A DNA stretch of 64,000 bases from an uncultured Verrucomicrobiae bacterium (GCA_963765205.1 CAVXVB010000009.1:192001-256000), one strand, 5' to 3'. Positions 32,707 to 48,500 are shown, counted from the first letter of the stretch. Notes: generated from the sequence alone by a model not told the origin. Made by a program: numbers and translations.

Positions 32707-33589
32707 ACTTCAAAAATACCAGCCCCACCGCCACGAGCAGCAGCAGCGCCCCCGCCAGCCGCCGGACCATCACGCCCGCGCCCGCCGCGCGTTCCTGGTT
32801 GCCCATCCGCGGCCCGACCGCCCACACGAGCAGTATGCTCCACAACCCGCGCGTGCTGTAAACGACGTTCACGGCCGGGGCCTGGCCGTAATGGCCGAGC
32901 GTGAAGGCCATGCCCCCCGATTGCGCCGCGCAGAGGATGCTGCCCCCGACGGCCCACGGCCACGCCGCGCGCGGAATCGCCCGCAATGGCTCGCGGAAAA
33001 ACGGCATCAGCAAAAATGAGGACAGCGCCACGCCGGCAAACATCACCGCAGTATAACCCATCGTACCGATGGCTTGCGCGTGCATTTCGACGAGCAAATC
33101 ATTGAAGCCATACAACGCCGCCGACAAAACCGCCAGCATCGCCGTCAGCGCCAGCCGCTTGCGGTCGTGCCAGTTGGACATGCCCAGCAAAAACACCGCC
33201 CCCGCCGCCAGACACGCCGCAACCCACCACGTCCCCGGCATCAACCCCGCCCCCAGCAACACGGTAAAGAGCGCCACAAACACCACTTTGACGCCCATCG
33301 CTGGCGCCAGCACCGTCACGTCGCCCGTGCGCATCGCGAGGAAAAACAGCACTTGCCCGGCCGCATAGACCAAACTCGACAGCAGCGGCCACTCCAGCAG
33401 CGGCCAGGTCAGCGTGTGCGGCAACTGCGCCAGGCCGGGCAAGAATAAAAGCCCCGCCGCGACATTGTTCAAAAACGCGATGCGCAGCGGGCCAGTGCCA
33501 TGATCCATCGCGCGCTTGAGGATGATGCCGCCCAGGGCAAAGCCCCAGGACCACAGCAGCGGTTGCAGCAGGAAAAAGGGATGATCCAT
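32705..33589 (-). CDS. DMT/EamA-family transporter
   Basis: About ten TM segments, internal duplication, GDVTVLAP motif. Confidence 0.8.
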   Translation of the reverse strand: MDHPFFLLQPLLWSWGFALGGIILKRAMDHGTGPLRIAFLNNVAAGLLFLPGLAQLPHTLTWPLLEWPLLSSLVYAAGQVLFFLAMRTGDVTVLAPAMGVKVVFVALFTVLLGAGLMPGTWWVAACLAAGAVFLLGMSNWHDRKRLALTAMLAVLSAALYGFNDLLVEMHAQAIGTMGYTAVMFAGVALSSFLLMPFFREPLRAIPRAAWPWAVGGSILCAAQSGGMAFTLGHYGQAPAVNVVYSTRGLWSILLVWAVGPRMGNQERAAGAGVMVRRLAGALLLLVAVGLVFLK

Positions 33590-33624
33590 GAGCAGGTGCG
33601 ACCTCAGTTCTTTTTTTAAATTAA

Positions 33625-33714
33625 ACCACGGATGCCACGGATAGCACGGATAAAGCAATCGAAGCCACCGCCCTGCTCATGGAACGCATCCGTGGTATCC
33701 GTGTCATCCGTGGT
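33625..33714. repeat. Inverted pair of 9-bp-period tandem repeats (CACGGATNN family)
   Basis: ACCACGGATGCCACGGATAGCACGGAT ... ATCCGTGGTATCCGTGTCATCCGTGGT. Confidence 0.88.
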
Positions 33715-33741
33715 GGTCTTTTTTGAGGTTTAAAACCCGGC

Positions 33742-34668
33742 CTACGCGTTCAATTCATGCCGCAGCGCCGCTTCGAGGCCCGCGTGCGTCCAGGCAAAGC
33801 CCGCCTCCTCCAGCCGCCGCGGGCGCACGGCCAAATCCGCCAGCATCGTCTCGACCGCCATTTCGCCAAACATGAGTTTGAGCGCGAACGCCGGCACCGG
33901 GGCCTTCGCGGACTTGTTGATGATACGCCCAATCATTTCCGTCAGCTCGCGGTTCGTGCAGACGTGCGGCGAGACGACGTTGACCGGCCCGCGCGGCTCC
34001 GGCCGCCCGGCCAGGAACAGCAGCGCCGCGACGGCGTCGGTCAGGCCGATCCAGCTCACGCGCTGCGTGCCCGGCCCGGCCGGCCCCGCCATGCCCATGT
34101 TGAACACCTTCAACAATTGTTCGAGCGCCCCACCCTGCCGCGCCAGCACCACGCCGAACCGCGCGAACACCGTGCGCACGCCCGTCGCCACTGCCGGCGT
34201 CGCCGCCGCCTCCCACGCGCAACACACGTCTGTCAAAAATCCCTTGCCCGGCGCGGATGTTTCGTCCACCGGCTCGGCGCGCTGGAAGCCGTAATAACCA
34301 ATGGCCGACGCGCAGATAAACGCGCGCGGGCGCTGCGTCGGCGGCAGCGCCGCGATGCGCTCAGCCAGCAGGCGTGTCGAGAGTACCCGGCTGTCGTGGA
34401 TGGTCTTCTTGGACGCCAACGTCCACCGCTGCCCCACCGTCGCGCCCGCCAGATGCACGACGACGGCGATGTCCTCGAGCGCCTTGGCCGGAATTTCGCC
34501 CCGTTCGGGCTGCCACGTCAGCGTGTCCGGGCGCGGCTGGTGGGCGAGTTCGCGCACCTCGCCGCCCAGCGCGCGCCAATGCACCGCCAGCGCCCGGCCA
34601 ATGAGGCCCGAAGCGCCAGTCAGCAGCAAACGGCCGGGGGGAGGAGGAGTGGGGAGGGAGGCAGACAT
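33742..34668 (-). CDS. TIGR01777/YfcH-like NAD-dependent epimerase family oxidoreductase
   Basis: TGASGLIG, HLAGA..RWT, SRVLST, SAIGYYG, WEAAA, RFGVVL, P.RL...GF. Confidence 0.9.
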   Translation of the reverse strand: MSASLPTPPPPGRLLLTGASGLIGRALAVHWRALGGEVRELAHQPRPDTLTWQPERGEIPAKALEDIAVVVHLAGATVGQRWTLASKKTIHDSRVLSTRLLAERIAALPPTQRPRAFICASAIGYYGFQRAEPVDETSAPGKGFLTDVCCAWEAAATPAVATGVRTVFARFGVVLARQGGALEQLLKVFNMGMAGPAGPGTQRVSWIGLTDAVAALLFLAGRPEPRGPVNVVSPHVCTNRELTEMIGRIINKSAKAPVPAFALKLMFGEMAVETMLADLAVRPRRLEEAGFAWTHAGLEAALRHELNA

Positions 34669-35031
34669 AAAAGAAAAGAGCGAACAGCTTACGCAATCGC
34701 GCGACTTAAAGCAACGTCGGCATTTTTGCCTACTAACACCCCCAATTTCGCACCATAAAAACGTAATCCTCTTTACGTCCAACCTTTGGTTACATTAGGT
34801 CCAATATACTTGTCATAAACGCAACTGACATTTATTCTCCTCCAAAGAATGCGTCGTCCATAGAGCAACGTTTCCAGCCTTTGGAATTCCATTTATTGCG
34901 ATCCGCCTAAGGCCAGCCAAAATCATTCTGGCACATAGGCAAATTCATTTTTCGATTGTGCATTCGGAAATTACCTCGAATCTTGTCAAGAATATCGGCT
35001 CATCCCTCCAAAAAAGAGGGTTCCTTTCCGA

Positions 35032-35060
35032 TTGCCTTAACGCGCCAATCCGCCTAATCT
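35032..35060 (+). promoter_or_regulatory. Putative sigma70 promoter of rnpB
   Basis: TTGCCT-N17-TAATCT ending 7 nt before the rnpB P1 helix. Confidence 0.55.
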
Positions 35061-35067
35061 CTCCTTT

Positions 35068-35486
35068 CCAGTTCCCGGGGATGTTCATTCGCTCGCCATC
35101 GCCCCGGCGGTGGCGGGAGGAAAGTCCGGACACCATAGGGCAGGATTCCCTTCGAAAGGGGGGGCGTCCCGCATAACGCGGGACGACGGAAAGTGTCACA
35201 GAAAATCAAACCGCCCAAGCCGCGCGCAAGCGCGGACGGCAAGGCTGCAAAGGCGGGGTAAGAGCCCACCGCTCCGACGGCAACTGCGGAGGCATGACAA
35301 ACCCAATCCGGTGCAAGACCAAATAGGGGACCAGGCGGCCCGACCAACGGTCCCGGGTTAGTCGCACGACGCGCAAGCGCGACCGCCGGTTTCGCAAGGA
35401 GCCGGCGGCAGAGAAATGAATGAGCGGCGGGAGTGCCGCGAGGCGCCCGCCAGAACAAAATCCGGCTTACGACCCCTGGGAACTGG
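35068..35486 (+). ncRNA. rnpB: RNase P RNA (type A)
   Basis: GAGGAAAGTCCGG and ACAAAATCCGGCTTA (P4); AGTGTCACAGAAA; GGTAAGAG; GCAAGACCAAATAG; terminal P1 CCAGTTCCCGGGG/CCCCTGGGAACTGG. Confidence 0.96.
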
Positions 35487-35494
35487 TTTCTTTG

Positions 35495-35612
35495 TAGAAG
35501 CTAGGAGCTAGAAGTTAGGAGTTAGAAATTGGAAACTAAGAGTTGGAAGTTTAAATTGGTGGTGTAACTTCTTGTGTTTGGTCCTTCTAACTTCCAGCTT
35601 CTAACCTCTACC
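35495..35612. repeat. Inverted pair of TAGAAGT/TAGGAGT-type heptamer tandem repeats between rnpB and the EVE gene
   Basis: TAGAAGCTAGGAGCTAGAAGTTAGGAGTTAGAA... and CTTCTAACTTCCAGCTTCTAACCTCTA. Confidence 0.8.
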
Positions 35613-35623
35613 TTCTCTCCCTC

Positions 35624-36085
35624 ATGCAGCATTGGCTAATGAAATCCGAGCCGGACGTTTTTTCGCTCGCGCACTTGCAAAAACGCCCCGGCGGCGTCGC
35701 GCCGTGGGACGGCGTGCGCAATTACCAGGCGCGCAATTTTATGCGCGCCATGCGCGTCGGCGACCTGGTGTTGTTTTATCATTCGAGTTGTGAAATCCCC
35801 GGTGTTGCCGGCCTCGTCGAAGTCGTCGGCGCCGCGCGGCCCGACGAAACGCAGTTCGACCCGCAGTCCGAATTCTATGACCCCGGCGCGAAACGCGATA
35901 ATCCCCGCTGGTCGCTGGTGGACGTGCGCTACGTCGCCACCTTCCCGCAATTCGTGCCGCTCACCACCCTGCGCGCGCAACCCGCGCTAAAAAAAATGCG
36001 TCTTCTTGCCCCCGGCAACCGCCTCTCCGTCCTCCCCGTCACCCCCGCCGAATTCAAACGCATCTGCCAACTCGGCCAAGGGTAG
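35624..36085 (+). CDS. EVE domain protein (THYN1-like)
   Basis: WLMKSEP, WDGVRNYQARNFMR, GDLVLFYHS, RLSVLPV. Confidence 0.94.
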   Translation: MQHWLMKSEPDVFSLAHLQKRPGGVAPWDGVRNYQARNFMRAMRVGDLVLFYHSSCEIPGVAGLVEVVGAARPDETQFDPQSEFYDPGAKRDNPRWSLVDVRYVATFPQFVPLTTLRAQPALKKMRLLAPGNRLSVLPVTPAEFKRICQLGQG

Positions 36086-36137
36086 GGTGCTTTTCATAAT
36101 TCATAAATCCGAACCCATAATTCATCATTTAAAAAAG

Positions 36138-36211
36138 CGGGGGCGGAGGGACTCGAACCCCCGACCAGCAGTTTAGAAAACTGCTGCTCTATCCGCCTGA
36201 GCTACGCCCCC
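36138..36211 (-). tRNA. tRNA-Arg (anticodon TCT), no encoded CCA
   Basis: GGGGGCGTAGCTCAGGCGGATAGAGCAGCAGTTTTCTAAACTGCTGGTCGGGGGTTCGAGTCCCTCCGCCCCCG folds into a cloverleaf. Confidence 0.95.
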
Positions 36212-36267
36212 AAGTTATTATCAGTAAAATAGTTACAACTATCTTCAATGCTCCATAAAATAGGTGT

Positions 36268-36291
36268 TGTAACCCGTTTGTGTAACCCGGT
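36268..36291 (+). repeat. Putative integrase arm-type binding site (left)
   Basis: TGTAACCCGTTTGTGTAACCCGGT, identical to 39986-40009. Confidence 0.8.
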
Positions 36292-36302
36292 AGTATCTGG
36301 GC

Positions 36303-37382
36303 ATGAATTCGACACAAAATCCCCCTGCCCGGTCTGCGGGCCGGACATATTCAAAGGTAGCCGAATGCCTGTATCGGTGTGACACATCAGGTGTCTATTA
36401 TGCTCTGCTGAAAAAGAGCGGCAAGCAAATCCGCCGCTCCCTCAAGACCGACGACCGGAAGCTGGCGGAGCGTAACCTTGCCGAGTTCAAGGAGAAGGTG
36501 AGCCGTCTCGACCTTAGCCAGGGTAAGAATCGGATCACCTTCGGCGAACTAGCCACCCTATGCATGAACACCTGGCGGGCCCGTCTCAAGCCCCGGTCGG
36601 CCGAAAGTCGGGAAAACAGCATCAACCAACTGCGCCCCTATTTCGGGGCGATGCCCGTCCGCAGTATAACCCGCCTGCAATGCGAGCAATGGGCAGAGCA
36701 ACGCAGCCCGCAAGTCGCGGCCTCAACCTTTAATTGCGATCTTGAGTCGTTGCGGGCCATCCTGGACTACGCCCAGCGCGAAGGGCTGATCATGGACAAC
36801 CCCGCCCAGGTCATTGTTCGCCGGCGCATGGGCAAGGTCGCCATCGTCATCCCTACCCGCGAGCAATTCACAGCCTTGGTGACCACGCTACGTGGTCTGG
36901 ACGTGCGCTATATCGCCGCGGCCGATTTGGTGGAACTATTGGCCTACTCGGGGATGCGCAAGGCGGAAGCCAACGCATTCCGTTTGGCCGACGTTGATTT
37001 CAAGCGCGGCAGCTTCACGGTCACTGGCGGCGAATACGGCACCAAGAACCATGAAGCCCGCGTCGTGCCCCTGTTCCCGGTGCTGCAATCCTTCTTGGAG
37101 CGCCTCCAGGCCGAAAGCCCGCGCCCGTTTGAAAAACCCTTGGTCTCCATCCTGGACGCCAAGAAAGCCTTGGAAACGGCTTGCAAGCTCAACGGGTTTC
37201 CCCACTTTACCCATCATAGTATGCGTCATTTCTTCGTCAGCAACTGCCTCGAAAAAGGCGTGGACTTCAAAACCCTCGCCGCTTGGGTTGGCCACAAGGA
37301 CGGCGGCTTGCTCGTCGCCAAAACCTATGGCCACCTGCGCGACACCCACTCTTACGAAATGGCGAAAAGGATAACGCTATGA
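36303..37382 (+). CDS. Tyrosine recombinase / integrase
   Basis: LAYSGMRKAE (R), TKN (K), HSMRH (HxxR), WVGHKD, KTYGH (Y); N-terminal arm-binding-like domain. Confidence 0.95.
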   Translation: MNSTQNPPARSAGRTYSKVAECLYRCDTSGVYYALLKKSGKQIRRSLKTDDRKLAERNLAEFKEKVSRLDLSQGKNRITFGELATLCMNTWRARLKPRSAESRENSINQLRPYFGAMPVRSITRLQCEQWAEQRSPQVAASTFNCDLESLRAILDYAQREGLIMDNPAQVIVRRRMGKVAIVIPTREQFTALVTTLRGLDVRYIAAADLVELLAYSGMRKAEANAFRLADVDFKRGSFTVTGGEYGTKNHEARVVPLFPVLQSFLERLQAESPRPFEKPLVSILDAKKALETACKLNGFPHFTHHSMRHFFVSNCLEKGVDFKTLAAWVGHKDGGLLVAKTYGHLRDTHSYEMAKRITL

Positions 37383-39061
37383 AACTTAATGAGCCAACGA
37401 AGGAAGAAAAAAACTGAAAGGAAATCGCTTTTTTGGGGTTGCCGGGGTCGGGAGGTGGGGGTTAAGGGGGAGGGGAAGCATGCCCCCATTAGCCCCCCAT
37501 CATAGACGAGGAATAGACCGTCTGAGCGGGGTAGGGCCAGGGGTTGCCAGGATTGTTCCTGGCTTTCCTCGGCTGCTGGCGACTCTACGCCTACCTTTTC
37601 GCAATCTGCACTAGAATAGCTGACACTGCGTTCACGAGGAGCCTTGTTGAGTCGGCGGTCGGGCAAGCCGACCAATTCCATGCCGGGTTCAAATTCCACG
37701 ATGCGCGCGTCCCAGGTGTCCACGCCCCAGAGGATGGTTTTGATGGGCAGCGGCGGGGCGTGGGCGGGGGGGAGGGCGCTGATGCCTTCCCAGAGGCCGA
37801 GGCGGGTGAGCCAGTCGCGGATGGCGGCGGGTTTTTTGATGAGGCCAACATTGCGCATGAGGCCGCCGCAACAGGGGCAGCGCAGCGGGTCGGCGCCCCA
37901 CACGCGGATGACGAGCGCGCGCCAGGTGCGGCGGCGTCCCTCATCCCGCAGGCGGGATTCGGGATCACTCCCGGCTTCACGACTCCCAGCGCCAGCGCTG
38001 GGGTCGGAAGCCTGGGTGAGGTACGGTGGCGCAAATGGAGTCTTACGGGCCAGACCCCGGCACTTGTTGCTGTAGCGGCCATAGTAACGGATCAGTTGGT
38101 TGGATTTTTCGGGAATATGCTCGGCGAGGGCGGCGATGAAGTCGGCCCCGGCAAAGATTTCATAGTTGCGCTTGGTATGCCAACTGCGCGCGGAGCGATA
38201 GAGGACGGTGCGGGTGGCGGGGTTCCAGTGCATCTTGTCCAGCGCGAGCGGGGCGCGCAGGAGGTATTCGGCCAGTCGCTGGCGGCCGGCCGCATCGTCG
38301 GCGGCCAAGGGCGCTTCCCCGACATCCACCTGAAAGCCGCTATGCCGCCAGGACAGGAAGCGGTGCGCCTGCCAGGCTTCGATGATGCCGGTGTCCACGA
38401 ACCGGCACAGGATGGCGTGGCGAAAGAGTTCGGCGAGGTCGGCTGCGCCGCCGCTCGGTGCGAGGTGAAAGGCGCCGGTTTGGTCGAACACCCCGTTGGC
38501 CGCGAGGATATGCAGGTGCGGATGAAAGACCAGGTAATCGCCAAAGGTGTGCAGACCCGCGATGGCGGCAATTTGGCCGGAGGGCTGGCCAGTGCGTTCG
38601 CGGAACCAGATCAGCAGGCTCTCGTGCGCGGCGGCGAAGAGCAAGGCGAGGTGCTCGCGCTTGCGCCGGAAGGGCCAGCGCAGGGCGCGGGGCACGGTCA
38701 GGACGATCTGCCGGTGCGGCGCGGGCGCGCAGATTTCGCGGGCAATAATGTGGGCGGCGTCCACGCTGCGGCGTTGATGGCAGGACGGGCAGGCGCCGCG
38801 TTTCTTGCAGGTAAAGGGCAGCAGGTATTCGTGGGCACAATCGGCGCAGCGGATGCGGGCAAAGCCCTGGGCCAGGTCGCCGCAACGCAGAAAGGCGCGC
38901 AGGCTGGGCGACACGACCGAGCGCAACGGGCCAGAGGCTTCCTCGTAGCGCGTGGGATAATTGGCCAGGAAATCACCAAGACAGGCGTGCAGGCATTGCC
39001 ACCAAGGCGAAGCCCGCGGTCGTCTGGCGCGATAGCTGGCACTCATCCCATAAGTGAACAA
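37352..39061 (-). CDS. IS91-family-like (Y2 HUH, rolling-circle) transposase with N-terminal Zn-binding domain and extended C-terminus
   Basis: FLRCG..GFARIRC..C..LPFTCKKRGACPSC; HRQIVLTVP; HTFG..L.FHPHLH (HUH); WRHSGF; YLLRAP; RYYGRYSN; DPLRCPCCGG; start may be 39043. Confidence 0.88.
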   Translation of the reverse strand: MFTYGMSASYRARRPRASPWWQCLHACLGDFLANYPTRYEEASGPLRSVVSPSLRAFLRCGDLAQGFARIRCADCAHEYLLPFTCKKRGACPSCHQRRSVDAAHIIAREICAPAPHRQIVLTVPRALRWPFRRKREHLALLFAAAHESLLIWFRERTGQPSGQIAAIAGLHTFGDYLVFHPHLHILAANGVFDQTGAFHLAPSGGAADLAELFRHAILCRFVDTGIIEAWQAHRFLSWRHSGFQVDVGEAPLAADDAAGRQRLAEYLLRAPLALDKMHWNPATRTVLYRSARSWHTKRNYEIFAGADFIAALAEHIPEKSNQLIRYYGRYSNKCRGLARKTPFAPPYLTQASDPSAGAGSREAGSDPESRLRDEGRRRTWRALVIRVWGADPLRCPCCGGLMRNVGLIKKPAAIRDWLTRLGLWEGISALPPAHAPPLPIKTILWGVDTWDARIVEFEPGMELVGLPDRRLNKAPRERSVSYSSADCEKVGVESPAAEESQEQSWQPLALPRSDGLFLVYDGGLMGACFPSPLTPTSRPRQPQKSDFLSVFFFLRWLIKFHSVILFAIS

Positions 39062-39140
39062 TTGAGCATATCATGAATCAAGCAGGAGTTATTCACAAAG
39101 AATCGCGCGTGGGGCCAGGCATCCACTCTCGGCAATTTCC

Positions 39141-39638
39141 TCAAAGCACCGGCAGTCCGCAGGCGGCAAGGGACAGATTCAAGATGGCCGGGGCAATATA
39201 GACGCCTTTGATCAACATTTGGGCGTACGTGGCGCGGAGGTCGAGGACGAGCTTTCTGCGATGGGCCAATTCCAGGATGCCGACACAGCCAATGACGTTG
39301 AGTTGGTGGTTCGTGGCCAGTTGACGGGCTGCGCGTTCGTCAAGAATAACCCAATCCGCCGCCAAGGCCTTGGCCAGGGCTATCGTCGCCAGCTCACCAG
39401 ACCCTAAGCTGGCCTGGCTACGCCAAGAGGCCATATCGGCGTGAGACAATGCGGGATGAACTTCAATCCACTTCGCCGCCTTTATCGCTGCTGCGGCCGG
39501 CCGACCGGCCCCGACAATGACAACTTCCTCATAGACCTCGCTGGACACCTGGACGGTGCCAAAGAGGGCCGGCAGCAAATCGAGCCGGTCAATTCGCCCC
39601 AAAATGATGAGGGGAGAAGCATTGGAGACAACCTTCAC
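39141..39638 (-). CDS. PIN-domain DUF3368 protein (putative toxin)
   Basis: VVSNASPLI, VYEEV, LGSGELATI, ILDERAAR, IGCVGIL. Confidence 0.88.
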   Translation of the reverse strand: MKVVSNASPLIILGRIDRLDLLPALFGTVQVSSEVYEEVVIVGAGRPAAAAIKAAKWIEVHPALSHADMASWRSQASLGSGELATIALAKALAADWVILDERAARQLATNHQLNVIGCVGILELAHRRKLVLDLRATYAQMLIKGVYIAPAILNLSLAACGLPVL

Positions 39639-39895
39639 TGAGCGAGTTCACGAGCCGCTTGGTGGTCGTCACGCCAATCCGAGGCCGTATAATGCAGGGG
39701 TATGGCCCGCTCGGCGGTCAGCGTCATGAAGTCCTCCAAGGCCATGCCGGCGAGTTCGGCAGCTTTGCCCAGGGAGACGCGCTCTTCGCGGAAAAGCTCA
39801 AGCACGATGAGCTTGGCAGCCTGGGCGGGCACCGCCCCGGGCATTTCTGCCAACTCAAATAACTCGGCTGAGAGGTCTACGTGAACTGTTGACAT
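39635..39895 (-). CDS. UPF0175-family protein (putative antitoxin)
   Basis: LFREERVSLGKAAELAGM..EDFM; stop overlaps the start of the DUF3368 gene. Confidence 0.85.
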   Translation of the reverse strand: MSTVHVDLSAELFELAEMPGAVPAQAAKLIVLELFREERVSLGKAAELAGMALEDFMTLTAERAIPLHYTASDWRDDHQAARELAQ

Positions 39896-39985
39896 GGGTT
39901 GGAAGGTAACACCAGCCGGGCTGGCAGGCAATCATGGAATCAAGGCCCGGGCAAAGCGCAATTTTCCTGACTCGGTTTCTAAATG

Positions 39986-40009
39986 TGTAACCCGTTTGTG
40001 TAACCCGGT
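39986..40009 (+). repeat. Putative integrase arm-type binding site (right)
   Basis: Identical to 36268-36291. Confidence 0.8.
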
Positions 40010-40134
40010 GGGTGAAAAAGGGCGGAATTTAGAGGATTGAGGATAACGACCTGAAACCCGCAAGCCCCTGAATGACACGGGGTTGATTACTCCAGCACAC
40101 CCTGGTCAATTATAGCAAATCGTATCATTTCGCA

Positions 40135-40173
40135 TTAGAAAACTGCTGCTCTATCCGCCTGAGCTACGCCCCC
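40135..40173 (-). repeat. att site: displaced 5' half of tRNA-Arg(TCT)
   Basis: Matches tRNA nt 1-39 and ends exactly at the 3' edge of the anticodon loop (TTTCTAA). Confidence 0.93.
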
Positions 40174-40334
40174 TAGCCTGCTAAAATATGGACAGATGCG
40201 CCGGGGTCACGCTCAAAGTCACCACCCTGTCGGTCTCACCCTGTGCCGGGGCCAGGGAGATGGCCAGGACGCGGCAATCCGTGGGCGGGTAAGACCCCAT
40301 GGCGGCGGCCGCAGCTGTGTGTTATCATGGCGCC

Positions 40335-40490
40335 ATGAATATATTACTACTCATCATCATTTTTCTGCTGCTGTTCGGGGGCGGTGGTTTTTATATGGGC
40401 GGCCCCGTCATCGGCGGCAGTGGGATCGGCCTTATCCTCGTGGTGTGCCTGATCATTTATTGCTTGGGCGGATTCCGCACGAAAAGTTAA
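40335..40490 (+). CDS. Small membrane protein (DUF3309-like)
   Basis: MNILLLIIIFLLLFGGGGFY.GG...GG.GIGLIL. Confidence 0.8.
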   Translation: MNILLLIIIFLLLFGGGGFYMGGPVIGGSGIGLILVVCLIIYCLGGFRTKS

Positions 40491-40741
40491 GCGAAGGCGG
40501 CGGTGGATGTCGCAGCGTCAGGGGGGGGCATTTTTTTCTGGCTGGCGGTCGTCGGTCAGGCATGAGCAAGGCGTGACGGCATTCACCGACGCCAAAGCCC
40601 CTGCCGTGAAGGCGGGCGTGCTGGCGCATCCTGCTTGACGAAAGTACCCGTGGTAGTGCGTGACTTTTTCGAAGATGTTTGCAGTCTGGCCGTTGGGCAG
40701 CCGAAATAACGCCCAATATCCATTTCAAGACAGCCCAACCC

Positions 40742-41131
40742 ATGAGCAAATCCAAAAAAAGCACTCCCGCGAACATCATCTGGTTCGAAATCCCCGCCAA
40801 CAAGCCGGCGCGCGCGCAGAAATTCTACAGCAAATTGTTTGGCTGGAAAATCAACGCCATGCCGGGGATGAGTGATTACTGGCACATAGACACTGGCGGC
40901 GAAGACGCCATGCCGGACGGCGGCCTGATGACCCGCAAGTGTCCCGGCCAGCCCATCACCAACTACGTCAACGTGCCGTCCGTGACCCGGGCCATGGCCA
41001 AGGTCAAAAAACTCGGCGGGAAGGTCTGCAAACCCAAGACCGCCGTGCCGAAGATGGGCTACTTCGCCATCTGCCTGGACACGGAAGAAAACATGTTCGC
41101 CCTCTGGGAAATCAATATGCAGGCGAAGTAG
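40742..41131 (+). CDS. VOC/glyoxalase family protein
   Basis: WFEIPA..ARAQKFYSKLFGW; GGKV..PK..VP.MGYFAICLDTEENMFALWE. Confidence 0.9.
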   Translation: MSKSKKSTPANIIWFEIPANKPARAQKFYSKLFGWKINAMPGMSDYWHIDTGGEDAMPDGGLMTRKCPGQPITNYVNVPSVTRAMAKVKKLGGKVCKPKTAVPKMGYFAICLDTEENMFALWEINMQAK

Positions 41132-41263
41132 GGTTCTGACTGAAGACAGTTACTTTGCCATTGGTTGGCTTATATGGGTCAAGTTTACTCACGCTTATCA
41201 AATCGCTTTGCAGCCTTTTCCAGCATAGAGAGCAATTCCCGATTTCTGTCGCTGCCATTTGAC

Positions 41264-41776
41264 TTAACCCGCCTTTCGTGCATTGCCGATGGCGGTCAGT
41301 TGCATCCATCCGGGAATTGTGGGATTTGCTCCGTGCGCCAGCATAAGCGCTGCCATCTCGTTTTCGCCTTCATCCACAGCTTTTTTGATCGCCGTATCTC
41401 CGATGTTCGGTTCGTCGTGAGCGTTTACGTCAGCACCGGCATCAAGCAATATTTTGGCGAATTCGATATTATGCTCGCGCACTGCGCTCATCAGGGGAGT
41501 ATGGGCAGTTTCATCAAATTCATTTATCTTCTTCTTTCCATATTCTGTCAGTAGAATCGCTTTCAAAACGTTTACGCTCCTGTTATCAATGGCGGCTTGT
41601 ATTGGAGAAATGCCCGTAATCACACGGACGCGGTTTAAGTCTACCCCGCCTACGATGGCCTTTTGGAATTCCGCCAGATTGTCGTTGGCAATCGGTTCAA
41701 ACAAATCGAAATAATGATCCAGCCGCTTGTCCAGCTTTGCCAGCATGACAGTCGCGGGATTAAACTTGGGTGTCAT
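41264..41776 (-). CDS. Ankyrin repeat protein, possibly frameshifted near the C-terminus
   Basis: SPIQAAI, TPLMSAV..LLDAGADVN, DTAIKKAV..LAHGANP; lower GC. Confidence 0.8.
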   Translation of the reverse strand: MTPKFNPATVMLAKLDKRLDHYFDLFEPIANDNLAEFQKAIVGGVDLNRVRVITGISPIQAAIDNRSVNVLKAILLTEYGKKKINEFDETAHTPLMSAVREHNIEFAKILLDAGADVNAHDEPNIGDTAIKKAVDEGENEMAALMLAHGANPTIPGWMQLTAIGNARKAG

Positions 41777-41855
41777 GGCGTAAATATAGGGACCAAAGAC
41801 CCGTTTTGGCAATGCAAGAATCGAAGTAGAAAACAGGCGTTATCTCGATTCCAAG

Positions 41856-41955
41856 CAGGGGTCGTCGGCAAGCGACGCCCCTACAGTGCCGTGCAGAAGA
41901 CGCCTCACAGGTTTCATTCGCCAATTGTAGGGGCGTCGCTTGCCAACGGCCCCTG
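41856..41955. repeat. GTAG-type REP-like inverted doublet
   Basis: CAGGGGTCGTCGGCAAGCGACGCCCCTACA (41856-41885) and TGTAGGGGCGTCGCTTGCCAACGGCCCCTG (41926-41955). Confidence 0.82.
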
Positions 41956-41982
41956 GGTATTTTCTACAGAGCAGAATCAAAG

Positions 41983-43515
41983 CTATCCTCCGAGCAGCTT
42001 CTTAAGAATGTCATCCACTGTCTGTGGGTTGGCCTGGCCTTTGGTCTGTTTCATCACCTGGCCCTTGAGGGCGTTGATGGCGGTGAGTTTGCCGGCTTTG
42101 TATTGTTCGACGGGTTTCGGATTCGCCGCGACGATTTCCGCGCAGATTTTTTCCAGCTCGCCGGTGTCGGCCTGCATCCGCAGACCCTTGCGCTCGACGA
42201 TGGCCTCGGCCGGGTCGCCGGTGCGGAACATTTCCAGGAAGACATCCTTGGCGATTTGCTTGGAGATCACATTATTCGCCACAAGATTAACTAAACCCGC
42301 AAGCATAGCTGGTGTGATTTTGCATTGTGACACCTTTAACGGTGACTCGCCATGTGGTGCCGCTGATGCGAGTTCACGGAGTAAATCGTTTGCGATGTAG
42401 TTAGCAATGGGCAGTGCGAGCATTTTGCCTCTGCCAATAAATACATCAATGCCTTTTGGGCTGAGTGCAGCATCGTATGCAATGCCTCCACATGCGGTCA
42501 CGGCATTCTCAAAATATTCTGACAATTCGCGATCTTGACAAATCACCGACGTAATCGTGTAGGGCAAATCTAATCCCTCCTTCTGGTAGCGGCGTTGCTT
42601 GTCGAAGGGCAACTCCGGCAACTCCGCCCGCAGTTTCTCAATTTGCTCCGGCGTTGTGCGCACGGGCATCAGGTCGGGGTCGGGAAAATAGCGGTAGTCG
42701 TGCGCCTGCTCCTTCGAGCGCATGGATTGCGTGACGCCCAGTTGTGCGTCCCACCGGCGCGTCTCCTGCACGATCCGCTCGCCCTTTTGCACGCACTGGA
42801 TTTGCCGCTTGATTTCAAACTCCACGCCGTTGCGCACGCCGGAAAAGGAATTCAGGTTTTTCAATTCCACCTTCGTGCCGAGCTTCGTCTCGCCGCGCAG
42901 ACGCACGGAGATGTTCGCGTCGCAGCGCAACTGGCCCTTTTCCATGTCGCAGTCGGAAATGTCGGCGGCGACGAGGCAGGTGCGCAGCGTGGTGAGGTAG
43001 GCGAAAACTTCGTCGGGCGTGTGCATGTCCGGCTCGGAGACGATTTCGATGAGCGGCGTGCCCGCGCGGTTGAAGTCCACCAGGCTGTCGTTGAGAAAGT
43101 GGGTGAGCTTGCCCACGTCCTCCTCGAGGTGGATGCGCGTGAGCTTCACGACGCGGTGCGCGCCCATGAGGTTGCGCGACGGGCCGGGCAGCTCGATCTC
43201 GACCCCGCCGCCGAGGCAGAGCGGCTGGTCGTATTGCGAAATCTGGTAATTCTTCGGGCTGTCGGGATAGAAATAATTCTTGCGGTCCCATTTGCACGTC
43301 TCCGCGATCTGGCAGCCGAACATCAGGCCGACCTTGATGCTTTTGCGGATGGCCTCGGCGTTCATCACCGGCAGCGTGCCCGGCAGCGCGAGCACGACGG
43401 GGTTCGTCAGCGTGTTCGGCGGCTCGCCGTAGCGGTAGGCCGCGCGCGTGAACATCTTCGAGCGCGTCTTTAATTGGACGTGCACCTCGAGGCCGATGAC
43501 TGCTTCAAATTCCAT
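41983..43515 (-). CDS. gatB: Asp/Glu-tRNA amidotransferase subunit B
   Basis: IGLEVHVQL, RKNYFYPD..KNYQISQ, HLEEDVGK, NRAGTPLIEIV, LRCDANIS, DYRYFPDPDL. Confidence 0.97.
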   Translation of the reverse strand: MEFEAVIGLEVHVQLKTRSKMFTRAAYRYGEPPNTLTNPVVLALPGTLPVMNAEAIRKSIKVGLMFGCQIAETCKWDRKNYFYPDSPKNYQISQYDQPLCLGGGVEIELPGPSRNLMGAHRVVKLTRIHLEEDVGKLTHFLNDSLVDFNRAGTPLIEIVSEPDMHTPDEVFAYLTTLRTCLVAADISDCDMEKGQLRCDANISVRLRGETKLGTKVELKNLNSFSGVRNGVEFEIKRQIQCVQKGERIVQETRRWDAQLGVTQSMRSKEQAHDYRYFPDPDLMPVRTTPEQIEKLRAELPELPFDKQRRYQKEGLDLPYTITSVICQDRELSEYFENAVTACGGIAYDAALSPKGIDVFIGRGKMLALPIANYIANDLLRELASAAPHGESPLKVSQCKITPAMLAGLVNLVANNVISKQIAKDVFLEMFRTGDPAEAIVERKGLRMQADTGELEKICAEIVAANPKPVEQYKAGKLTAINALKGQVMKQTKGQANPQTVDDILKKLLGG

Positions 43516-43516
43516 G

Positions 43517-43610
43517 ATTCGATGGTTAAATTGCTCGATTGTTGAATTGTTGAATAACTTAGGTGTTTTTGTTTTTAGCAATACAACAATAGAACAATCG
43601 AGCAATTCGG
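43517..43610. repeat. Inverted pair of 8-bp-period repeats between gatA and gatB
   Basis: AATTGCTCGATTGTTGAATTGTTG ... CAACAATAGAACAATCGAGCAATT. Confidence 0.78.
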
Positions 43611-43611
43611 A

Positions 43612-45078
43612 TTAAAGTGGCGCGCGGCGCGAATGATAATCGTGCGCGGTTTCGAACAGCCGCCCCATCGCCAGCAGGTCGGCCTCCGCGAACGGGCGGC
43701 CAATCAGTTGCAGGCCGATGGGCAAATTATTCTTCGTGAACCCGCAGGGCAGCGACAGGCCCGGCAGCCCGGCGAGGTTGACGGAGATGGTGTAAATGTC
43801 GCTCAAATACATCGCCAGTGGGTCGTCTGTTTTCTCGCCGCGCTTGAACGCCGCCGTCGGCGCGGTGGGCGTGATGATGGCGTCCACCTGCCGGAAGGCG
43901 TCCTCGAAATCGCGCCGGATGAGCGTCCGCACTTTTTGTGCGCGCAGGTAATAAGCATCGTAATAGCCGCTGCTCAAAACATAGGTGCCCAGGATGATGC
44001 GGCGCTTCACTTCCGGGCCGAAGCCCTCGGCGCGGCTCTTGAAATACATGTCCAGCATGTCCGTCGTGCGCGCGCTGCGGTGCGTGTAGCGCACGCCATC
44101 GTAGCGCGCGAGGTTGGACGACGCCTCCGCCGTGGCGATGATGTAATACACCGGCAGGCCGAGTTCCGCGTGCGGCAGCTTAATGTCCACGATTTGGCAG
44201 CCGCGCCCTTCGTAAAATTTGATGGCCGCCTCAATGCTTGCGCGCACCTCCGGGTCGAGGCCCGCGCCAAAAAAGTCGCGCGGCACGCCAAGCTTCCACG
44301 GCTTCGGTGGCGCGGCGACGGCGGCGGCGTAGTCGGGCACAGGCTGCTTGAGCGAAGTCGAGTCGCGCGGGTCATGGCCGGCAAAAGATTGCAGCAGCAG
44401 CGCGGCGTCCTCCGTCGTGCGCGTCATCGGGCCGATTTGGTCGAGCGACGACGCGAAGGCCACCAAGCCGTAGCGCGAGACGACGCCATACGTCGGCTTC
44501 AACCCCACGATGCCGCACAACGAGGCCGGCTGGCGAATCGAGCCGCCCGTGTCGCTGCCCAGCGCCGCCGGCGCCGCGCCCGCCGCGACCGCCGCCGCGC
44601 TGCCGCCCGAGCTGCCGCCGGGGATGCGCGCCAGGTCCCACGGGTTGACCGTCGTTTGATACGCGCTGTTTTCCGTGGACGAGCCCATCGCGAACTCATC
44701 CATGTTCAGCCGCCCCCACAACACCGCGCCCGCCGCGCGCAGGCGCTCAATCACCGTCGCGTCGTAGGGCGACACAAATTTTTTGAGCATTTTGCTGGCG
44801 CACGTCAGCGGCTGGCCCCGGACGGCGATCACGTCCTTGATGCCGATGGGCACGCCGTCGAGCGGGCCGCGCGCCGGCCCGGCGGCGCGGCGCTGGTCGG
44901 CGGCGCGGGCCTGGGCGAGCGCGTCATCCTCGTCGCGGTGCAAAAACGCGCCGACCTGCGGCTCGACTGCGCGCGCGCGTTCGATGAAGGCGCGGGTGAC
45001 CTCCTCAGACGAAACCTCTTTGGCCGCCAGGCGGCGGCTCAATTCGGCGAGGGTGAGACTATGCAGCGGAGCGGACAT
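43612..45078 (-). CDS. gatA: Asp/Glu-tRNA amidotransferase subunit A
   Basis: [46 protein letters not shown]. Confidence 0.97.
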
Positions 45079-45429: not shown

Positions 45430-45507
45430 GCATGGCAAAAAAACCCGCCGGAAGGCAAAATAATTATTTGCCGAACCGCCGGATGTCTTTATGACTGGCC
45501 TTGCGCC

Positions 45508-48500
45508 ATGCACCCCGTTGAAACCTATCTGGAGGAACTCGCCACGTCGCGGGCTTCCGGGGCGGTGGTGAAGGAAACCTCGGGCTATCCGGCGCTGGCC
45601 AATTTGCTCAATGCCGCCGGGCAGACGCTGCGCCCGAAGGTGCGCTGCCTCCTCCAGCTCAAAAATAGCGGCGTCGGCCTCCCGGATGGCGGCTTGTTCA
45701 CGCCCGACCAGCTCAAGCGGTCGGACGAACAGGTGCCCTTGCTGGGGTTAAAGCCCGCCCGCGGCGTGGTCGAGGTCAAGTCCCCCGGCGACGAACTGGC
45801 GAAAATCGCCGCCACGGAGCAAATCAAAGGATACCTGGAGCATTACGGCCTGGTTTTGCTCACCAATTACCGCGACTTTCAACTCCTCCAGCAGGGCCGC
45901 AACCGCCAACCGCAAAAACTGGAATCGTTCCGGCTCGCGCCCGACGAGGCGGCTTTTTGGCAGGCGGCGGCGCACCCGCGCGCGACGGCCGGCGCGTCGG
46001 GCGAGCGCTTCCTCGAATACCTCAAGCGCGCCCTCCTTCACGCCGCGCCCCTGACCAACCCGCGCGACGTGGCGGTGTTCCTGGCCTCCTACGCGCGCGA
46101 TGCCCGGGCGCGCGTCGAGGCCGCGGGGGATTTGCCGGCCCTCACCGCCGTGCGCGCCGCCCTCGAGGAGGCGCTCGGCATGAAATTCGAGGCCGTCAAA
46201 GGCGAGCATTTTTTCCGCTCCACCCTGGTGCAGACGCTGTTCTATGGCGTGTTTTCCGCCTGGGTGCTCTGGCACAAGGAGCAGCCCGCCCGCCGGGACG
46301 CCTTCGATTGGAAAACCGCCGCGTGGACGCTGCATGTGCCGATGATCAAGTCGCTCTTCGAGCAAATCGCCACGCCCACCAAGCTCGGCCCCCTCGGCCT
46401 GGTGGAAGTGCTCGATTGGACCGCCGCCGCCCTCAACCGCGTCGAACGCGGTGCCTTTTTCGAGAAATTCGTCGAAACCCACGCCGTCCAGTATTTTTAC
46501 GAGCCGTTCCTCGAGGAATTTGACCCCGCGCTGCGCAAGGAACTGGGCGTCTGGTATACCCCGCCGGAGATTGTGCAGTATATGGTCGCCCGGGTGGACA
46601 CCGTCTTGCGCGAGGAATTGGACATCCCCGACGGCCTGGCCGACCCGCGCGTCTTCGTCCTCGACCCCTGCTGCGGCACCGGCGCCTATCTGGTCGAGGT
46701 GCTGCGGAGGATTGCCCAAACGCTCCGGGAAGAAAAAGGCGAGGATGCCCTGGCGAACGAAGGTTTCAAAGAGGCGGCGATGAAGCGCGTTTTTGGCTTC
46801 GAAATCATGCCCGCGCCGTTCGTCGTCGCCCATTTGCAGATGGGTTTGCTGTTGCAGAATTTGGAGGTGCCGCTGGATGAAAAGAAGAACGAACGGGCCG
46901 GCATCTTTCTCACCAACTCGCTGACCGGGTGGGATTTCATCGGTGAAAATCCCCAGCTCAAAAATTGGCCGGAACTGGAGGCTGAGCGCGCGGGCGCCGG
47001 CCGGGTGAAACAGGAGAAGCCCATCCTTGTCATTCTGGGCAATCCGCCTTATAATGCCTACGCGGGCATCAGCCCGGAGGAGGAGCAGGGTTTGGTGGAG
47101 CCGTATAAGGAGGGTTTGGTTAAAAAATGGGGCATCAAGAAGTTCAACCTGGACGACCTCTATGTGCGCTTCTTCCGGCTGGCCGAACGCCGCATCGCGG
47201 AGAAAACAGGCAAAGGCATTGTTTGTTACATCTCAAATTTTTCCTATTTGACCGATTCTTCTTTTGTGGTCATGCGCCAGCGGTTCTTGCAGGAGTTTGA
47301 TTCGCTATGGTTCGATTGTCTCAATGGAGACAGCCGTGAAACAGGCAAGCTGACACCGGAAGGCAAACCTGATCCGTCGGTGTTTTCAACCGAATACAAC
47401 CGCGAGGGCATTCGCGTTGGCACGGCGGTCTGCCTCATGGTGCGCCGGGCCAAGCGGGCGAAAAGCCCGAAGGTTTTCTTTCGCCAGTTCTGGGGTGCGG
47501 GAAAAAGAGCTGATTTGGTCAAGAGTCTCAAATCAAAAAACTTCGCCAAACAATATGAAAAAGTCGAACCGACGGAAGCTAGTCGCAGCTCGTTATTGCC
47601 TTTAGTTGTCTCATCAGAATACCTGCACTGGCCAATGTTGATTGACCTTTCTTATGTCGCCCCTTCCAACGGCTTGATGGAGAAACGGGACGGCGCACTG
47701 ATTGACATTGATCGTTCCGCCTTGGAAAAAAGAATGCGAATGTATTTCGATAGGACAGTTAATTGGCCCACGCTCCATTCGCTTGATACGGGGCTGACCG
47801 AGGACGCGGCGCGGTTTGATGCCCAGAAGGCCCGTGCCAAAGTCATTCAATCAGAAAAATATCTGCCGGAAAATTTGCGCCATTACGCGCTCCGCCCATT
47901 TGACAATCGTTGGTGTTATTACAGTTCTGAACGTCCGCTTTGGAATGAACCCCGGCCCAATCTCTGGGCCCAGTGCTGGGAGGGAAATACTTTTCTGATC
48001 AGCCGGCCCGCCGCGATCGCCAGCCCCGAGGGAGTCCCGCTGTTCTATACGCCCCTGCTGGGTGATAATGACTTTTTGCGCGGCCATGCCTATTATTTTC
48101 CCATTCGTTTGCGCAATGGCTTCAAGGTGATCCCCAAGAATAAGACCGACACCAATGGCGAATTTGACCAGATTCTGGAAGAAGCCGCCGGCGAATATGA
48201 TGCGGGAGAAATAAAAACCACCGCCAATCTTTCTTCGGGTGCCCGCGCCTATCTGGCCAAACTCGGGATTATTAATCCTGATACGGATGAGGCGGCTGCA
48301 TCCATGCTCTGGATGCATGCGTTGGCCGTCAGCTATTCCGGCCATTATCTCAACGATAATGCCGACGGTATCCGCCAAGATTGGCCGCGCGTCCCATTGC
48401 CGGACACAAAGGCTACGCTTCTGGCCTCTGCCACGCTTGGCCGACAAGTAGCGGCTTTGCTAAACACCGAGACCCAAGTAAATGGCGTTGCTGCGGGAAA

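Follow-up and report, generated by a model that had tools for sequence, protein, structure and literature searches.

How does a tRNA gene stay in use when a mobile element settles on its upstream side? The question is raised by an element of about 4 kb at the tRNA-Arg(TCT) gene of an uncultured Verrucomicrobiae bacterium, found in a stretch of 64,000 nucleotides (GCA_963765205.1, CAVXVB010000009.1:192001-256000) that is here called the window and numbered from its first letter. The element lies upstream of the intact tRNA gene, and its integrase gene is divergent across a gap of 91 nt, as the original prediction from the sequence had it (ARAGORN, Rfam and open reading frames (ORFs) agree). That prediction also asked whether this is the only Arg(TCT) gene: there is one among the 55 tRNA genes of the assembly (4.02 Mb, 12 contigs, 92% complete). 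Probably this is a site-specific element of a Verrucomicrobiota clade of tyrosine integrases whose own attachment site (attP) has reversed polarity, so that the front half of the tRNA is rebuilt together with a replacement promoter.

The element ends are marked by a direct repeat. Nucleotides 1-39 of the tRNA recur as an orphan 5' half at the far end (39/39 bp identical, with the adjoining base different on both sides), and BLAST of tRNA-Arg(TCT) against the orphan half aligned nt 1-39 at 100% identity (E 9e-16). The repeat search itself reported 42 nt at 98%, the mismatch being the first base beyond tRNA nt 1. Direct reading places the 7-nt anticodon loop TTTCTAA at nt 33-39, and the identity stops at the 3' end of this loop, exactly as originally claimed. 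In 15 family loci the corresponding limit falls at nt 37-41, and a stray arm elsewhere in the genome follows a core of 7 nt. Judging from these limits, the 7-bp overlap of strand exchange would be the anticodon loop itself (36173-36179). A second exact repeat, of 24 bp (36268-36291 and 39986-40009) and absent from the original prediction, is found at both ends of the element, and each copy contains two arm-type motifs (TGTAACCC). The Rfam model RF00005 matches the rebuilt tRNA at 36138-36211 with 67.2 bits, and a scan of 33000-44000 at the Rfam gathering threshold gave nothing beyond this tRNA and RNase P RNA. The features are collected in Table 1.

Table 1. Features of the element and its borders in the window (att, attachment site; IHF, integration host factor; IS, insertion sequence).
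Feature	Position	Strand	Evidence
Intact tRNA-Arg(TCT): host 3' half (36137-36172) and element-side 5' half	36137..36211	-	ARAGORN
att repeat copy 1, tRNA nt 1-39	36173..36211	-	repeat search, BLAST
IHF-like site, degenerate, in tRNA-proximal att arm; 2 mismatches in window copy	36223..36235	+	
Candidate tRNA promoter: -35 TTACAC (36285-36280) inside arm site, 17 nt, -10 TATTTT (36262-36257)	36250..36285	-	
Candidate integrase promoter: -35 TTGTAA (36267-36272), 18 nt, -10 TAGTAT (36291-36296), ATG 6 nt on	36267..36302	+	
Paired arm-type motifs (TGTAACCC twice, 13-nt spacing), tRNA-proximal; putative integrase arm sites	36268..36288	.	
Tyrosine integrase, 359 aa, open frame	36303..37382	+	PF00589 and PF14659 above cut-off
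IS91-family transposase, cargo	37352..39061	-	PF04986, PF14319; NF033538 146 bits (cut-off 125)
Multi-copy IS end	37412..37499	.	10 other assembly copies (C4, C5, C9)
DUF3368 PIN-like protein, putative toxin	39141..39638	-	PF11848 E 5e-5, under curated cut-off
UPF0175 protein, putative antitoxin	39635..39931	-	PF03683 above cut-off
Paired arm-type motifs, distal, same orientation as proximal pair	39986..40006	.	repeat search
Distal att arm, ~128 nt, common to sister elements	40007..40134	-	
Orphan 5' half of tRNA-Arg(TCT), att repeat copy 2	40135..40173	-	repeat search, BLAST
Presumed host upstream region: GTGACC-N16-TATTTT (40210-40183), 9 nt before orphan half	40174..40210	-	

The same polarity is found throughout a family of related integrases. 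Among 19 homologous loci in the genome collection, 18 have a divergent tRNA gene just upstream and one has no upstream sequence. Metagenomes contributed 71 loci, with 44 divergent (43 by script, L087 by hand), 26 with too little upstream sequence and one without a tRNA. A divergent upstream tRNA is therefore present in 62/63 evaluable loci, and a co-directional one in none. The two sets overlap, and the 61 loci called by script represent 54 distinct upstream sequences. A survey of integrase homologs for 5'-type duplications had been proposed, and it bore the proposal out: orphan 5' halves (nt 1 to 37-41) occur in 15/61 loci (13 distinct) and 3' fragments in 0/61. The targets comprise 15 anticodons (Arg TCT/CCT/ACG/CCG, Lys CTT/TTT, Thr TGT/CGT, Ser TGA/GCT, Met, Leu CAA/TAG, Val CAC, Asn GTT), and the named hosts are Verrucomicrobiota records, one of them Kiritimatiellales.

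In a sample of the phylum 19 of 401 genomes, the present one included, match the integrase at E 1e-40 or better. All 16 matches of at least 44% identity are divergent. At 35% identity or less (n = 11) five are co-directional downstream of a tRNA, which is the usual 3'-type arrangement, four are divergent and two have no adjacent tRNA. A quick tree of 76 proteins contains a 65-row clade (SH-aLRT, the Shimodaira-Hasegawa-like approximate likelihood-ratio test, 99) with 64 divergent loci and one without a tRNA.

Both states of the tRNA-Arg(TCT) site are seen in relatives. Three of eight (G001, G004, G008) have a family integrase and cassette upstream of the gene. Four are empty, with no adjacent arm cassette: upstream of the tRNA, G002, G007 and G009 have GC-rich host-type DNA and no integrase, and in G003, whose contig stops within the tRNA, the upstream sequence was read by hand as host-type. 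The contig of G006 stops at tRNA nt 1. With four empty relatives of host type and three integrase carriers of element type, the original proposal of 5'-type integration with displacement of the host upstream region is supported; the crossover would lie in the loop. The four empty loci have TTGC-N16/17 promoter-like sites which, picked by eye, score 7.6-11.7, and a TTGCCC-N17-TTATAT site stands both in the upstream region of G003 and next to the L067 orphan half, on its host side. The anticodon arm pattern is present in 9/10 family genomes, own included. In G003 (G003:C209:2826-3722) and in L067 an EVE gene lies upstream of the tRNA, opposite to the arrangement in the window and four relatives, and in G003 a remnant of the distal arm is located between this gene and the tRNA. 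This points to a local inversion at the tRNA site of G003 and L067, possibly driven by the integrase.

Five paralogous integrase copies are present in the genome itself, each divergent just upstream of a tRNA. At four of these tRNA genes, Arg(TCT), Thr(TGT), Thr(CGT) and Lys(TTT), an orphan 5' half lies upstream. The integrases at the Thr loci are 74% and 62% identical, the Lys(TTT) locus has a 92-aa remnant, and the fifth paralogue (68%) precedes tRNA-Asn(GTT). The orphan half of each of the three sister elements has one mismatch to its intact tRNA. The Asn locus (tRNA at C9:913271, integrase and cassette at C9:912116-913189) has no distal arm nearby and an IS-like ORF after the integrase. 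No Asn(GTT) orphan half was found in the assembly at up to 4 mismatches in 37 nt; the cassette has been kept without it, so the region upstream of this tRNA looks permanently element-derived. The sister at tRNA-Thr(TGT) (C9:880057-895919, 16 kb) contains urease, nickel-transport and substrate-binding/ABC transport genes, and the one at tRNA-Lys(TTT) (C5:319167-327866) a truncated integrase, a two-component system and an RND efflux operon.

Two stray distal arms were found elsewhere in the genome. One (C9:351894-352070, - strand) follows only a 7-nt loop-like core with no tRNA half and is a probable scar of integration at a secondary site, which fits a 7-bp crossover. The other lies behind a partial, foreign Arg(TCT)-like 5' half in an island (C8:386911-398614) that is flanked by a 3' fragment of tRNA-Gly(CCC) and has a family-type replication protein (Rep) 50% identical to that of L028; the island may be a hybrid, or one element nested in another. 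Second genes for Lys(TTT) and Asn(GTT), of atypical sequence, occur in a seven-tRNA array (C9:1287772-1288740) that looks mobile-element-borne.

Insertion of this polarity is uncommon but documented, and the novelty of the geometry implied by the original prediction does not survive comparison with the literature. Here it is a fixed habit of a whole Verrucomicrobiota family. Among the 3919 islands of Islander 159 carry a 5' fragment of a tRNA gene (tDNA), and like the present element these have a tyrosine integrase and an intact tRNA with a displaced upstream 5' fragment; their anticodon-centred site would have its counterpart in the loop here (Hudson, Lau and Williams, PMC4383910). The window element also pairs an intact tRNA with a same-strand 5' fragment upstream, and its 3962 bp between repeat starts are within the Islander range of 2-200 kb. 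The available text of the Islander paper gives only the count and does not describe a Verrucomicrobiota clade, an arm cassette or a replacement promoter.

In bacteria, according to a review, recombinant tRNAs retain the promoter they had 'with very few exceptions' (PMC8371274). The pTN3/TKV4-type integrases of Thermococcales resemble the present one in using the 5' half of a tRNA gene as the host site (attB), and the rebuilt tRNA, cut off from its own promoter, is reported to be expressed from the integrase promoter (PMC8371274, PMC5495485). Their attP, however, is inside the integrase gene, which is split on integration, whereas here the 359-aa ORF is intact and divergent, and arm repeats mark both ends, so that a second promoter, facing the opposite way, is required for the tRNA. 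The reversed-orientation element described by Zhao and Williams in 2002 reportedly belongs to Mesorhizobium. PMC6563490 cites their paper (J Bacteriol 184:859), which is also among the references of PMC1635311, as the precedent in bacteria for an element that recombines with the 5'-distal part of a tRNA gene. The pelagiphages HTVC021P/022P/121P/201P/105P/109P/120P have tyrosine integrases and an attP with the tRNA 5' end that rebuilds the host tRNA, with junctions confirmed by polymerase chain reaction (10.1101/410191). These are T7-like podoviruses, whereas here no phage structural family was found in the 97 cargo ORFs scanned, and a search of viral contigs gave three pattern matches and no integrase locus. 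In tRNA-dependent lysogeny (PMC10865867) the tRNA is rebuilt at neither junction and the element has a separate complete tRNA; here the tRNA is rebuilt at the junction and is the only tRNA gene of the window.

According to Panis et al. the 'opposite and divergent' arrangement and one other shape make up less than 8% of 1273 tRNA-integrase pairs, and in one divergent pair, E. coli intF, the integrase gene is repressed about 23-fold by its own product (PMC2951348). These pairs are similar to the present family in that the tRNA and int are divergent and the att region covers the integrase promoter. The family spacer (~60-110 nt), however, is under the mean of 208-228 nt for the autoregulated pairs, and the available text does not address a tRNA-facing promoter (PMC2951348). 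No mention of 5' polarity was found in those passages of the tycheposon preprint, ProBord and PMC9897764 that matched the terms searched. Literature searches, covering listings apart from the papers named here, found no description of the clade or of a replicating island family, although the Islander and Panis tables could list members, and no paper on a replacement promoter together with integrase, tRNA and genomic island.

Where, then, could the replacement promoter be? The spacer between the tRNA and the integrase (36212-36302) has 36% GC versus 60% in the window, and the AT-rich stretch and the GATAAT hexamer (36217-36222) pointed out in the original prediction exist as sequence. In 17 elements the distal arm pair is 127-156 nt from the core. 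An IHF-like motif with at most one mismatch to the consensus was detected in the tRNA-proximal AT-rich 45 nt of 23/51 family arms, compared with 5.3 +/- 2.0 in shuffled ones. Just inside the orphan half an extended -10 match, TGCTATAAT (40117-40109, - strand), points into the cargo, and it has similar counterparts only in close relatives. Promoter-like sites were scored with a model trained on 41 host tRNA genes (consensus TTGACA-N16/17-TATAGT; leave-one-out median 9.5, range 2.3-14.9).

On the integrase side the mean -10 score is 4.3, compared with at most 0.9 at the 17 distal arm pairs, and in 41/55 family members the ATG comes 6-9 nt past the -10. This predicts a leaderless integrase mRNA whose promoter overlaps the arm sites. 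The predicted -35 is inside an arm motif clade-wide and thus, on two predicted assignments, the integrase promoter lies over arm-type sites as in the pairs of Panis et al., which would be a setting for autoregulation as in intF (PMC2951348). By analogy with other integrase promoters that overlap att sites, the integrase probably represses its own gene. Another candidate, GTTACA-N18-TAAAAT (36232-36261, + strand), was rejected: its register has a family mean of -0.4, versus 2.2-2.7 for TTGTAA-N18-TAGTAT.

On the tRNA strand the best conserved register has a -35 TTrCAn in the other arm motif, a 17-nt spacer and a -10 yAwwTT (mean 1.4, next best -0.5). The A-11/T-7 pair of bases is present in 34/56 proximal and 1/17 distal arm pairs, a count that omits 4 proximal regions and 1 distal region without a clear arm pair. 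GC-rich discriminators are typical of stable-RNA promoters. Past the tRNA-side -10 a patch of 60% GC, versus 27% in the rest of the arm and 56% in host promoters, was found in 49/51 family members; in the window this discriminator-like patch is at 36256-36250, and the predicted leader is about 38 nt. An element-supplied tRNA promoter is likely, and to this extent the original claim that the tRNA is transcribed from element DNA is supported. The GATAAT hexamer that it named as the site is not: it has no -35 partner at 16-18 nt, scores -6 to -14 versus the host median of 9.5, is not conserved even at 88-93% integrase identity and is absent from the hits of the consensus scan.

The integration reaction may be pictured as follows. 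The attP would consist, in order, of an arm pair, about 55 nt of AT-rich DNA with an IHF-like site, tRNA nt 1-39, the arm of about 128 nt and the second arm pair. Strand exchange by the integrase would take place between two copies of the 7-bp anticodon loop, one in attP and one in the host tRNA. With a reversed attP, recombination in the loop puts the element upstream of the tRNA, where element nt 1-39 complete the host 3' half; by the layout, the host promoter and the original 5' half would end up at the far element end. Conservation suggests that the 91-nt spacer would serve as att arm, leaderless integrase promoter and replacement tRNA promoter, the last with its -35 in an arm-type site. 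AGA is readable only by the UCU anticodon, and AGA codons, at 1.2 per 1000, are found in 1090 of 3265 heuristically picked ORFs. Because the codon is widespread and has this one reader, the rebuilt tRNA gene must be expressed. The replacement promoter would be a licence for integration without host death and not an AGA-tuning device; selection for a working replacement promoter accounts for the conserved cassette, and no tuning role is needed. The original suggestion that AGA-containing genes are tuned is not supported: the clade also uses Lys(TTT), Asn(GTT), Thr, Met, Ser, Leu and Val tRNAs, some of them for abundant codons, and the integrase gene has 0 AGA in 360 codons.

Several observations weigh against this reading. 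The original prediction expected relatives without the element to have sequence of the 40174 type and not of the 36212 type upstream of the tRNA: they have no 36212-type sequence there, but BLAST of the flank from 40174 on against their empty-site upstream regions gave no match either. The host origin of this flank would follow from the geometry; 40174-41200 matches scattered contigs in 5/9 family relatives, none over the first 100 nt, and the gatB synteny comparison gives coarse order only. The promoter-like site in the flank scores 6.1, and the best site there is not above shuffles (0.12). No orphan half turned up in 11 loci where 10 kb could be inspected. The tree is quick, midpoint-rooted and without bootstrap, and four divergent loci are outside the main clade. 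The arm and IHF sites are assigned by analogy. The candidate tRNA promoter of the window scores 2.4, at the bottom of the host range, and the best tRNA-side site beats its own shuffles in just 29/51 elements. The family members are kin and not independent, and after deduplication the A-11/T-7 count is 16/32 in the 17-nt register and 21/32 with 17 or 18 nt. The -10-like run could instead serve DNA bending or another protein.

Other explanations account for parts of the same evidence. The integrase or an excision complex might modulate the rebuilt host tRNA, so that integrase level, integration and excision would alter tRNA supply. Both predicted promoters overlap the arm pair clade-wide, the tRNA is single-copy with its codon in a third of the ORFs just cited (1090/3265), and the element side scores lower than the host side at 3/4 loci of the genome (5.5 v 6.4, 6.0 v 10.0, 9.3 v 10.8), or at 4/4 by raw score with 3.9 v 6.4, where just two host sides beat shuffles at <=0.01. 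Such coupling is nevertheless unlikely: the targets include tRNAs of abundant codons (AAA 17.7, AAT+AAC 29 per 1000), whose repression would be costly, an integrase without AGA codons allows no direct feedback, and the overlap of att arm and integrase promoter is general (PMC2951348) and may be forced by a short spacer. Less probable still is that the element has no dedicated promoter and the tRNA is processed from a long transcript, started at the stranded host promoter or at inward minus-strand cargo promoters. The host side, the inward TGCTATAAT, the toxin-antitoxin pair and the transposase do all face the tRNA, the proximal promoter is weak by score, and the terminator-like hits on the minus strand have 5-pair stems only and are at chance level in number. 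The cargo of the sister elements, however, which are 2-21 kb long, may face either way (in one of them 16 kb of urease and transport genes run antisense to the tRNA), no orphan end survives at the Asn locus, and the conserved -10 and GC patch are in the proximal cassette and not at the distal arm pair.

The original prediction also held that the tRNA promoter could enforce retention of the element. Imprecise loss of the proximal cassette alone would be lethal by silencing an essential tRNA, and the cassette survives where the integrase is truncated or interrupted (Lys locus of this genome, G004) or the far end is lost (Asn locus). Precise (conservative) excision, however, rejoins the host promoter with the intact tRNA, so no addiction arises by that route. 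The same is stated for pTN3 (PMC5495485). Moreover, 4/8 relatives are empty at tRNA-Arg(TCT), the persistence concerns about 90 nt and not the element, and a toxin-antitoxin pair, putative here, is the more usual retention device; addiction is very improbable. The chance that the repeat is an assembly artefact or a chance duplication, the refutation foreseen at the outset, is negligible. The assembly is incomplete (92%, 12 contigs), and among the contigs listed none spans the whole element. The same study, however, includes a second sample in which a contig covers 36171-36336 with 0 differences. This contig crosses the 36211/36212 junction and extends over 41 nt towards the tRNA and 125 nt towards the element; the best-covering sequencing run, possibly the source sample, is left out of this support. 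Five metagenome loci with 88-93% identical integrases have the same layout at Arg(TCT), dozens of other loci share it, and arm pairs are present at both ends.

The integrated element has four ORFs, encoding the integrase, the IS91-family transposase, the DUF3368 protein and the UPF0175 protein. The integrase contains the catalytic-type motifs GMRK (217-220), TKNH (247-250), HSMRH (305-309), GH (330-331) and TYGH (341-344), and scores 54.9 bits for PF00589 (cut-off 27.1). It is neither of Xer nor of integron type (XerC/XerD/integron scores 54/48/48, cut-offs 335/330/265), and a PDB sequence search found only distant tyrosine recombinases. The last two proteins may form a toxin-antitoxin pair. 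No virion, packaging or lysis gene, as a prophage or pelagiphage-type provirus would have, is among the four ORFs.

The transposase is similar to those of IS91-family insertion sequences in its Zn_Tnp_IS91 and Y2_Tnp domains, its NF033538 match and a multi-copy downstream end, which we take to be oriIS-like. An 85% identical copy is located at C5:46411-48062, several copies of the end are clustered at C5:48305-52364, and the homology of the window region with the C5 copy begins within the 3' end of the DUF3368 gene. Its role as the replication gene of the element was considered and rejected: it is convergent to int, this second copy and the multi-copy end occur elsewhere in the genome, and none of the other family loci examined contains it. 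It is a passenger distinct from the Rep of the family.

The full form of the family appears to be a small replicating island with int, an ORF, a small helix-turn-helix (HTH) gene, a rolling-circle Rep and defence or metabolic cargo. The Rep (PF23343) was detected in 8/13 distinct complete related elements, 7 above the cut-off, with Pfam run on 97/106 predicted cargo ORFs. By tblastn in 40 loci with at least 2 kb in view, Rep was found in 14/40 (one self-match of a non-Rep query left out) and the small HTH after int in 21/40; L069, an 88% identical relative, has both downstream of int. The small HTH is a possible excisionase. Members with the full form, PF23343 Rep and defence-type cargo are L028, L035, L039, L044, L078, L096, L106 and L034; the defence-type genes are OLD nuclease with UvrD helicase, SIR2, ThsB-like TIR, methylases, HNH and Mrr. 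Metabolic and transport cargo includes urease, efflux and glycosyltransferases. The window element lacks two parts of the full form, as no Rep (best E 0.23 for PF23343) and no small HTH was found in it by tblastn. With att sites and integrase intact but neither of these genes, it is probably a reduced passenger that seldom excises. Neither the attP circle nor an empty attB was among the joints listed from the contigs of four runs, a listing that leaves out seven joints and draws on contigs, which drop rare forms. No RNA run is among the 18 sequencing runs listed.

Some neighbouring features are recorded for completeness. A class A RNase P RNA (RF00010) is encoded at 35073-35485 (+), just upstream of the EVE gene. 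REP-like (repetitive extragenic palindrome) imperfect inverted repeats with arms of 27-30 bp lie in intergenic regions at 33625-33714, 41856-41955 and 43529-43607, some built from short tandem units. A region of long ORFs at about 45500-48200 (+), upstream of gatC, looks like a restriction-modification methylase by eye only.

As a single case the element adds little, since islands of reversed polarity are about 4% of catalogued tRNA islands. It is a rather doubtful idea that the attP arm is a two-way promoter cassette through which integrase dosage directly controls essential single-copy host tRNA genes. If true, up to five tRNA genes of a single genome would be under such cassettes, shared arm motifs would allow cross-talk between paralogous integrases, and mobile elements would be able to influence the tRNA supply of their host, with the decayed Asn and Lys copies being promoters permanently captured by the host. 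Island finders that scan only downstream of tRNAs would miss such elements. Earlier work, in its available text, infers promoter replacement without mapping the promoter, and from the 91-nt spacer the position of the replacement tRNA promoter can be predicted precisely, together with its overlap with integrase-binding sites. For the family, one integrase clade keeps the reversed polarity across at least 15 anticodons and occupies up to five tRNA genes of a single genome.

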